From a virus, in the IMG/VR virus record IMGVR_UViG_3300021093_003813, positions 36,968 through 100,967 of that record: 64,000 nucleotides of DNA. One strand, written 5' to 3'. Below, one piece after another: positions 35,140 to 36,062 of the stretch. The notes beneath the pieces are model-generated. The model did no database searches and was not told where the DNA came from. It was given only the letters and a program-made list of their open reading frames with translations. Position 1 is the stretch's first letter. Each line of letters begins with the position of its first letter. Both the position numbers and the translations under genes were made by a program.

Positions 35140-35397
35140 AGTGGGGTTTTCTGTTCCCAGGGAAACCCCGAACCCGGCATGCTACCTAATTAGGCAGCTA
35201 ATGCAAGAGGCATATTATTTGTGCCTGTTGATGTTTTTGCTCTGCTTACGGCAGTCGCCTATCGGGTAGCTCTCTCATCTAATCCTTAACCTGTCGAAAC
35301 CTGTCATCCCCGAAATTGGTGTACCTGAATGGAGATGGAGGGAATCGAACCCTCGTCCAAGCCATGTTTCAATTTGAGCTGTTCTACTACCATCCTA
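35140..35397 (-). ncRNA. ssrA: circularly permuted (two-piece) tmRNA
   Basis: Minus-strand order: T-arm GAGGG-TTCGATT-CCCTC, acceptor 3' strand CATCTCC-A (35337-35330), 18-nt intervening segment, 5' end GGGGATG-ACAGGTTTCGAC (from 35311) giving G3:U70, tag frame ...GTNNMPLALAA-TAA (35225-35190) with the stop in a hairpin; outer boundaries approximate. Confidence 0.9.
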
Positions 35398-35402
35398 CTT
35401 AG

Positions 35403-36062
35403 TTATTTATAGGCTTCGTACACATCACGATAGTACAGCAATTGTTCCACGTGATGGTCTCGTTTGCTTTCAAACACTTGCATGAATCCATCTGACACAG
35501 CTATCAGAATGGTCAATCTGCTCACTGGTATCTTGGTGCGTTCTTCAAACATGATGGCATAGGCAGCCGCCTGCATGAAGTAATGTTGGATATGTTCCAG
35601 ATCCTTTTCTCGGCGTGCCGTTTTGAAGTCAATCACACTCAACTTGCCATCAAACTCAGCTATACAATCCACACGTCCTGCCAAACGTAGATGATGTGAC
35701 CACAAGGCCACTTCTTGTGCTCGAATGTTGTCAATTCTATCCAACACAGGATTGGCCACCTTGAACATTTCATAATCCCAAAGTGACAAATCACCACCAG
35801 ACAAATTGTTCTGAAGATACTTTTCTGTGATGGTGTGAAATCTGGTACCCCACGTGGCAGCTTGTCGCGACACTTTGTTGGCTTCCATTTCTCCCACTCT
35901 GGCTCTCCATTCCTGGATGCCTTGTTTGGTGTGCTCAGCCAACACTGTGGTGACAGATGGATAGAGCCTACCATCAGGTGTCTGATAGGCTCTGGTTCCA
36001 TCTTCCTGGTTCACAGCGGAAATGGTTTCTATTGTTACCGGGTCATGTAGGAATGTTTTCAT
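35403..36062 (-). CDS. PD-(D/E)XK exonuclease (T4-like phage exonuclease, Cas4-like fold)
   Basis: R.Y.TPDG..YPSVTTVL, GT..H...E.YL, AG.VDCIAEFDG.LSVIDFKT, YF.Q..AYA.M.EE motifs. Confidence 0.9.
   Translation of the reverse strand: MKTFLHDPVTIETISAVNQEDGTRAYQTPDGRLYPSVTTVLAEHTKQGIQEWRARVGEMEANKVSRQAATWGTRFHTITEKYLQNNLSGGDLSLWDYEMFKVANPVLDRIDNIRAQEVALWSHHLRLAGRVDCIAEFDGKLSVIDFKTARREKDLEHIQHYFMQAAAYAIMFEERTKIPVSRLTILIAVSDGFMQVFESKRDHHVEQLLYYRDVYEAYK
35404..35411 (-). promoter_or_regulatory. T4-type late promoter TATAAATA driving the tmRNA
   Basis: Exact octamer overlapping the exonuclease stop, immediately upstream of the tmRNA. Confidence 0.7.

Follow-up and report, generated by a model that had tools for sequence, protein, structure and literature searches.

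The window analysed here is a stretch of 64,000 nt (positions 36,968-100,967) of the IMG/VR record IMGVR_UViG_3300021093_003813, a 101-kb fragment that is about 56% complete; near-identical DNA is found in lake and freshwater metagenomes, and no RNA run is listed among the public runs that contain the stretch. Covariance models from Rfam and inspection of the individual elements identify positions 35143-35398 (minus strand) as a circularly permuted tmRNA gene (tmRNA being the RNA by which stalled ribosomes are rescued), with an exonuclease gene on its upstream side and a gene for a QueC-like protein downstream. The first-pass annotation of this DNA, made from its letters, had read a phage-encoded two-piece tmRNA behind a T4-type late promoter at this place and had called for a covariance-model search. 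Every element that it listed was found at its position on the minus strand, and the search gave scores above the cut-off for both tmRNA_permuted (RF04321; 111.1 bits, E 8e-21, cut-off 47) and beta_tmRNA (RF01850; 93 bits, E 7e-27, cut-off 84), with the whole model length aligned in each case. The features of the locus, and the two phage transcription genes that bear on it, are as follows:

35403-36062, minus strand: upstream neighbour and syntenic anchor, a PD-(D/E)XK exonuclease (phrog_298, 8e-67; Pfam PDDEXK_1)
35404-35411, minus strand: late promoter box of the T4 type, TATAAATA, which overlaps the end of the exonuclease gene (last codons and stop)
35398, minus strand: predicted transcription start (G) and 5' end of the acceptor piece, placed by spacing and conservation
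35330-35398, minus strand: acceptor piece, 69 nt before CCA (Rfam alignment and compensatory changes)
35391-35387 and 35364-35358, minus strand: helix-2 5' strands GGUAG and UGGCUUG, within the acceptor piece
35354-35338, minus strand: T-arm GAGGG/TTCGATT/CCCTC, seen in the sequence
35337-35331, minus strand: acceptor 3' strand CATCTCC, seen in the sequence
35330, minus strand: discriminator A, followed by TTC, with CCA unencoded
35312-35329, minus strand: intervening segment of 18 nt starting with TTC, presumed removed
35143-35311, minus strand: coding piece (Rfam alignment and covariation), its 3' end undefined
35311-35305, minus strand: acceptor 5' strand GGGGATG (RNA GGGGAUG), the start of the coding piece
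35293-35287 and 35269-35265, minus strand: helix-2 3' strands, within the coding piece
35264-35249, minus strand: hairpin at the PK1 position, within the coding piece
35190-35225, minus strand: tag frame GGC...GCC TAA, encoding GTNNMPLALAA
35181-35198, minus strand: hairpin around the tag stop, GCUGCCUA/UAGGUAGC (pairing and covariation)
35143-35177, minus strand: 3' pseudoknot, CCGGG/CCUGG with GGGGUUU/AAACCCC and an AACAGAA loop (pairing in the alignment)
35169-35143, minus strand: closing stem GGGGTTT/AAACCCC, seen in the sequence
34542-35132, minus strand: downstream neighbour, a QueC-like PP-loop protein (Pfam QueC, 27.8 bits, cut-off 22)
30897-31166, minus strand: gp33-like late-transcription co-activator (phrog_254, 3e-16)
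G000 11409-12089, strand not given: gp55-like late sigma factor (phrog_234, 1e-58)

The order of the gene is reversed, with the T-arm and acceptor 3' strand lying upstream of the complementary acceptor 5' strand; CATCTCC (35337-35331) pairs with GGGGATG (35311-35305) at seven of seven positions, G3:U70 among them. After GGGGATG come ACA and then GGTTTCGAC, and the coding piece also includes GGUUUCGAC. In the fold that covariation supports, helix 2 and the 7-bp acceptor stem join the upstream acceptor half to the downstream coding half, and at the 3' end CCGGG (35177-35173) pairs with CCUGG (35161-35157) within the loop of the closing stem, adding a pseudoknot to the simple stem of the first-pass annotation. 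The permuted tmRNA elements in the window are far from chance. Between positions 34500 and 36100 no glutamine riboswitch or other Rfam family was found at E values up to 1.

The record carries T4-like genes, including those for a major head protein, a scaffold protein, a prohead protease, a DNA helicase (phrog_16) and gp32- and gp59-like proteins. By major capsid protein the closest cultured phages are Melnitz (67%) and the Pelagibacter myophages HTVC008M and Mosig (64-66%). The exonuclease upstream of the tmRNA shares 42% identity with Melnitz gene 82, and the gp33-like gene (30897-31166) has a homologue in Melnitz, located after ssrA. The gene for SmpB, for which a search of the genome had been suggested, was not found in the 101-kb record (about 56% complete), and neither was a gene for a CCA-adding enzyme, suggesting that the tmRNA would depend on host factors for its function.

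A scan of IMG/VR with a looser pattern detected a permuted tmRNA junction on at least 116 viral contigs, and an exact search of IMG/VR for the junction of the window itself gave no match. With the neighbouring exonuclease as query, 80 related IMG/VR loci were recovered, in 21 of which the exonuclease is followed by a tmRNA. The window and ten close IMG/VR relatives of the RNA, chosen by nhmmer, were aligned (11 sequences), and in this alignment a nine-helix structure has 92.4% of its cells paired, compared with 40-57% when the partners are slid against each other. Changes on both sides of a pair occur in nine pairs, a number reached by 2 of 500 shuffles: two in the T-arm, two in helix 2a, one in the acceptor stem and one apiece in helix 2b, the PK1 hairpin, the stop hairpin and the 3' stem. 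The T-arm shows GC/AU swaps and the acceptor stem a UA to CG replacement, each in 5 of the 11 sequences, while none of the 11 departs from G3:U70 or from the discriminator A. Helix 2a, with its two covarying pairs, is 98.7% paired, and GGUAG/CUACC is 100% paired and invariant. The single compensatory change in the PK1 hairpin (35264-35249) is CG to GC, and an A-C mismatch is found there in every member; a possible second PK1 stem, CUGC/GCAG, lies in columns that never vary, so no covariation can be read from it. In the stop hairpin 90% of cells are paired and one pair changes from CG to UA, and the two stems of the 3' pseudoknot have 96% and 88% of their cells paired. The architecture and loop motif of this pseudoknot recur in the Melnitz RNA, in further copies from phages and in both the alpha and the beta consensus. 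The relatives carry an intervening segment that varies in sequence and in length (18-50 nt), and none of them encodes CCA.

Two further pairings were considered. The GAGCT/AGCTC pairing between the two pieces, part of the first-pass annotation, does exist as a complementarity, but it has no compensatory change behind it and shares two bases with the invariant helix GGUAG/CUACC on which the Rfam model relies. A pairing, considered by eye, between the acceptor 3' strand and the 5' leader GUAGGAUGG was dropped, as the leader is invariant and the acceptor strand changes. The minimum free energy of the single sequence (z = -0.84) is no better than that of shuffles. In one relative (L121) the 3' part of the tmRNA gene is gone, and the RNA is thus dispensable at least in that lineage.

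The reading frame proposed for the tag, GTNNMPLALAA, lies in the same register as the tags that ARAGORN calls in relatives (GAYNAPLALAA, GTYNTPLALAA and DNNYMSFATSYALAA). The resume codon, GGC or GAC, is placed 4 nt after an invariant A (A35229 in the window), the position of A86 in the rule for the resume codon established in Escherichia coli (PMC2481249). Among the codons of the common PLALAA or YALAA ends all substitutions are synonymous, the upstream tag residues being variable, and one synonymous change, GCC to GCU, is matched by a G to A change in its partner within the stop hairpin. These synonymous changes at the tag end, together with the compensated one, show that the frame is selected both as peptide and as RNA. 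An ATG at 35180 would extend the QueC-like open reading frame across the 3' part of the tmRNA; this extension was rejected, as relatives either lack the ATG or carry 1-nt indels there, and the 3' part contains indels whose lengths are not divisible by three, which speaks against the next gene being extended into it as coding sequence.

ARAGORN called no tRNA or tmRNA in the window or in the 101-kb record, also when run locally down to -ps80. At 35230, position -5 relative to the resume codon, only the window carries a C where the others have U, and putting U in its place restores the call, with the tag GTNNMPLALAA; in-silico addition of CCA or a longer spacer did not restore detection. The miss is therefore attributed to C35230 and is not counted against the gene. 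C35230 and the identical sequence around it were assembled in independent lake-water runs, and the equivalent change in E. coli, U85C, had no adverse effect (PMC2481249). Surveys based on ARAGORN can thus overlook genuine copies over one base upstream of the resume codon.

At T4 late promoters, transcription starts 6 nt beyond the last A of the box. G35398, the first base of the acceptor piece, lies 6 nt past the last A of the TATAAATA box. This octamer occurs ten times in the window against 2.0 expected (a five-fold excess that none of 100 shuffles reached), and in the 101-kb record 11 of its 15 copies stand 10-82 nt upstream of a start codon on the same strand; the genes so preceded include those for the major head protein, the scaffold protein and a subtilase. 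ATAAATA is invariant in all 11 aligned sequences despite differing upstream genes, and is followed by a 5-nt spacer of fixed length and variable sequence, after which the first invariant column of the RNA is G35398. The motif NATAAATA is known as the late promoter of T4-like cyanophages (PMC2984593). A T4-type late promoter consists of an (N)ATAAATA box at -10, lacks a -35 element and belongs to a phage that encodes gp55 and gp33; the locus has such a box, and the phage has gp55-like and gp33-like genes. With the enrichment of the motif, the gp55 and gp33 homologues and the conservation of the box at a fixed spacing, the T4-type late promoter of the first-pass annotation is well supported in silico, and the locus is a clear example, in silico, of a stable RNA in which conservation begins at the very base where a T4-type late promoter is predicted to start transcription.

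It is possible, if rather unlikely, that TATAAATA chiefly serves the QueC-like gene (and perhaps the subtilase gene as well) and that the tmRNA is processed out of an mRNA, either from the 5' leader of the late message or from the 3' tail of the exonuclease message, and is not specifically late. No intrinsic terminator was found after the tmRNA, between its end and the QueC-like start codon at 35132; the QueC-like gene also lies downstream of the tmRNA in seven relatives (the open reading frame was not recovered there in three), and the two genes are possibly co-transcribed. A sigma70-like site, TTGACA-17-TATGTT, is present upstream of the exonuclease gene, and sigma70-like promoters occur at other phage copies of the locus. 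Read-through from this site is possible, so expression may not be exclusively late. Against a box that belongs mainly to the QueC-like gene stands the fixed 5-nt distance from box to RNA in all 11 sequences, among them those with differing upstream genes and the three in which no QueC-like open reading frame was recovered, and this fixed spacing to the first invariant base ties the box to the RNA. In all but the timing, a promoter shared in this manner is compatible with the main explanation.

That explanation, in which we place high confidence, is a functional-looking permuted tmRNA (ssrA) of an uncultured freshwater T4-like myophage belonging to the Melnitz/pelagimyophage group. Its core, the permuted two-piece tmRNA of a phage with a late promoter of the T4 type in front of it, as first annotated, is borne out by the covariance models, the covariation, the gp55 and gp33 homologues, the enrichment of the motif and its conservation at a fixed spacing. 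RNA polymerase modified by gp55 and gp33 would initiate at G35398, 6 nt past TATAAATA, and read-through from upstream may contribute. The precursor folds, as covariation shows, so that the acceptor half and the coding half are paired via helix 2 and the 7-bp acceptor stem; host RNase P would cleave 5' of G35311, and a 3' endonuclease or exonuclease would trim the acceptor half to A35330. Because CCA is not encoded, it would be supplied by the CCA-adding enzyme of the host, and the products would be an acceptor piece of roughly 72 nt and a coding piece of roughly 170 nt, base-paired together. Host AlaRS would charge the RNA via G3:U70 and A73, and host SmpB would bring it to stalled ribosomes. 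Translation would resume at GGC and add (A)GTNNMPLALAA, whose C-terminal LAA is expected to act as a ClpXP-type degron. The phage would probably gain an added capacity for rescuing ribosomes in the late phase of infection, at a time when the host no longer makes RNA and many mRNAs are broken. We infer the steps of processing and benefit from established bacterial two-piece tmRNAs; a defence role against host RNases or tRNA-cleaving systems, as raised in the first-pass annotation, is speculation.

There is a small chance that the RNA mainly competes with the host system or re-routes it and adds little rescue capacity; by drawing off SmpB and AlaRS of the host, or through a tag with another body, it would alter which proteins are degraded in the infected cell. 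The tag body GTNNMP... is unlike the AND-type tags of other copies at the locus, and an adaptor site of the AANDENY type is absent from it. A mycobacteriophage RNA with a tRNA-like domain only has been reported, and inhibition of tmRNA is described for a molecule of similar kind (PMC4131195); the authors of the Melnitz study, too, proposed that host proteins are tagged selectively (PMC9004378). The tag frame is conserved in full, together with its canonical ALAA terminus, the A at -4 and the stop hairpin, which fits ordinary trans-translation, and no particular targets are singled out by the sequence. A decaying passenger from a bacterium or another phage, without present function, would fit the truncated L121 copy, the unique U-to-C change of the window at a usually conserved position and the presence of a tmRNA at only 21 of the 80 related loci, but it is very improbable given the compensatory changes, the invariant G3:U70 and the synonymous-only tag end across divergent phages, which amount to purifying selection, the absence of this branch from the bacterial genomes searched and the tolerance of the U85C equivalent in E. 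coli (PMC2481249). We regard the gene as real and maintained by selection, a two-piece tmRNA of the phage preceded by a credible late promoter of the T4 type.

Among the subtype models, the window fits best the betaproteobacterial two-piece tmRNA (RF01850; Rhodocyclaceae such as Azonexus, Thauera, Azoarcus and Accumulibacter), in which helices, PK1 hairpin, tag and 3' pseudoknot follow one another as they do in the window, but it scores 93 bits (cut-off 84) where a bona fide beta-type copy (L018) reaches about 300, and in its sister clade the alpha model is best at about 58-60 bits. The subtype of the window copy is thus ambiguous. In a bacterial sample of 120 loci, 20 matched the profile, 7 of them not identified, and the named matches belong to Rhodocyclaceae, Burkholderiaceae or unclassified proteobacterial MAGs. 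A 36-nt signature of the branch to which the window belongs is absent from 185,579 species genomes, and a BLAST search of 401 genomes of the order Burkholderiales found nothing longer than the T-arm in 400, the exception being an Azonexus MAG. A general PK1 pattern was also tried as a host marker and rejected, since it matched all tmRNA types and was not diagnostic. The form and tag of the RNA had been suggested as pointers to the host or to an independent permutation. No searched bacterial genome carries the branch of the window, which leaves form and tag without a host to point to, and an independent permutation finds no support: the RNA is collinear throughout with the known permuted models and grades into conventional exonuclease-linked copies, with encoded CCA, a long spacer and AND-type tags.

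Those conventional copies include L154 and L176, which fit the beta model with up to 159 bits, and L137, which was not scored with Rfam; all three encode CCA and have long hairpin spacers, AND-type tags and sigma70-like promoters. Another locus, L188, has the TATAAATA box as in the window. The clade of the window has the look of a form that became compact and acquired a late promoter within a lineage carried by phages. A tentative extension of this, which we consider plausible but somewhat short of probable, is a branch so far met only in viruses that was streamlined in T4-like aquatic phages, with loss of CCA, a spacer cut to 18 nt and resume codons for Gly or Asp, and that exchanged a sigma70-type promoter for a gp55-type late one. 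If true, orthologous tmRNAs at one locus would differ in the timing of ribosome rescue. Unencoded CCA and a short spacer are in themselves common among viral permuted tmRNAs: of 100 distinct junctions, CCA is absent in 54 and the spacer is 4-9 nt in 50.

Two-piece tmRNAs have been described in Melnitz, a phage of OM43 (Methylophilales), and in pelagimyophages (Buchholz et al., 2022, PMC9004378). The same study found permuted tmRNAs in 17 of 47 related contigs and 53 two-piece tmRNAs among isolate phage genomes, mostly aquatic, and its authors termed the Melnitz tmRNA promoter early (PMC9004378). The finding is not novel as a class, since two-piece tmRNAs are already published for the closest cultured relatives and that of Melnitz lies at the same locus (PMC9004378), composed of PhoH, the exonuclease homologue, the tmRNA and the gp33-like gene; the two copies also share the 3' pseudoknot with its AACAGAA loop and the ALAA tag end. 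The Melnitz copy differs in its alpha-type GGCAGUA T-loop (RF01849, 106.7 bits), its encoded CCA, its spacer of about 145 nt, its tag ANDNYVPVDYALAA, the glutamine riboswitch that follows it and the TTGACA-type promoter that precedes it, whereas the window copy has a canonical UUCGAUU T-loop, an unencoded CCA, an 18-nt spacer, a late-type promoter and a Gly resume codon, and has no riboswitch. Permuted tmRNAs are also annotated in GenBank for Stenotrophomonas phages (Menderavirus: Marzo, Mendera, YB07 and others). They resemble the window copy in that the beta model scores best (94.6 bits for L002) and share 81.6% identity over the matched tRNA-like core (34% of the query), but they belong to another phage group, lie within a tRNA array, encode CCA and have a long hairpin spacer and the tag VAANDDSYTVRIAA. 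The mycobacteriophages of the Bxz1 group and Bacillus phage G likewise encode ribosome-rescue RNAs that need host SmpB, but theirs are one-piece tmRNAs in standard, unpermuted gene order (PMC4131195).

Set against these systems, the peculiarities of the window copy are local ones, namely its late-type promoter, unencoded CCA, 18-nt spacer, Gly resume codon and the U-to-C change behind the ARAGORN miss. Our analysis leaves the current picture of trans-translation and of phage auxiliary RNAs unchanged, and the locus is best regarded as a well-supported freshwater addition to the published phage two-piece tmRNAs, a solid annotation with a few new details and not a discovery. The more useful of these details are the single-base blind spot of ARAGORN and the difference in promoter class among orthologous copies; if the latter is real, the point in infection at which a phage supplies ribosome rescue turns into a variable that can be tested.

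The window's circularly permuted tmRNA gene is missed by ARAGORN because of a single C at position 35230, 5 nt ahead of the resume codon, where all ten relatives (10/10) carry U, and this C recurs in contigs of independent lake metagenome runs. Assembly graphs of lake runs fork at the borders of conserved tmRNA segments (window 35143-35301; loose ends in X13 and X16), and one loose end matches the 3' pseudoknot of the sister clade. From this branching and the matching end it follows that several phages with related tmRNAs share the same lakes. An Azonexus MAG holds, besides its main permuted-tmRNA match (166.7 bits), a second one (G001:C4:199754-199949; 88.4 bits) that is possibly prophage-borne.

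Directly 3' of the window tmRNA lies a QueC-like gene, an order (tmRNA then QueC-like) that is kept in seven relatives. The features concerned are:

Window 34542-35132, minus strand, QueC-like PP-loop protein gene (Pfam QueC, 27.8 bits; SGGADS motif)
Window 34565-34572, TATAAATA box of the S8 subtilase gene, 34 nt ahead of its start codon
Window 33023-34531, minus strand, gene for an S8 subtilase (93 bits to Pfam Peptidase_S8)
Positions 6050-11360 of the whole 101-kb record, queE-folE-exonuclease-(phrog_10773, function unknown)-...-queD operon

Since this operon of the same record appears to lack queC, the QueC-like gene may be its missing member. The tmRNA copy of one relative (L121:3658-3973) is deleted from the seventh tag codon on and its tag frame reads directly into the QueC-like gene, which together identify it as a decayed copy.

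Promoter type differs among the orthologous phage tmRNA genes (regions compared: L154:3380-3480, L176:3670-3770, L137:3590-3660, L188:4040-4130 and L332:5680-5720). A TTGAC-17-TATAAT-like promoter precedes the tmRNA in L154, L176, L137 and the cultured OM43 phage Melnitz, and TATAAATA precedes it in L188 and the window clade; in Melnitz, TATAAATA is present within the -10 region of the TTGAC-17-TATAAT-like promoter. The window further differs from Melnitz in that a cassette, the subtilase gene followed by sulfotransferase-like and endolysin genes, is inserted between the tmRNA and gp33.

Among 100 distinct viral permuted-tmRNA junctions (IMG/VR loci L003-L118), CCA is not encoded in 54 and the intervening segment is only 4-9 nt in 50, all 50 of which keep at least six of the seven acceptor pairs. 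Compared with the bacterial consensus spacer, these viral segments of 4-9 nt are far more compact.
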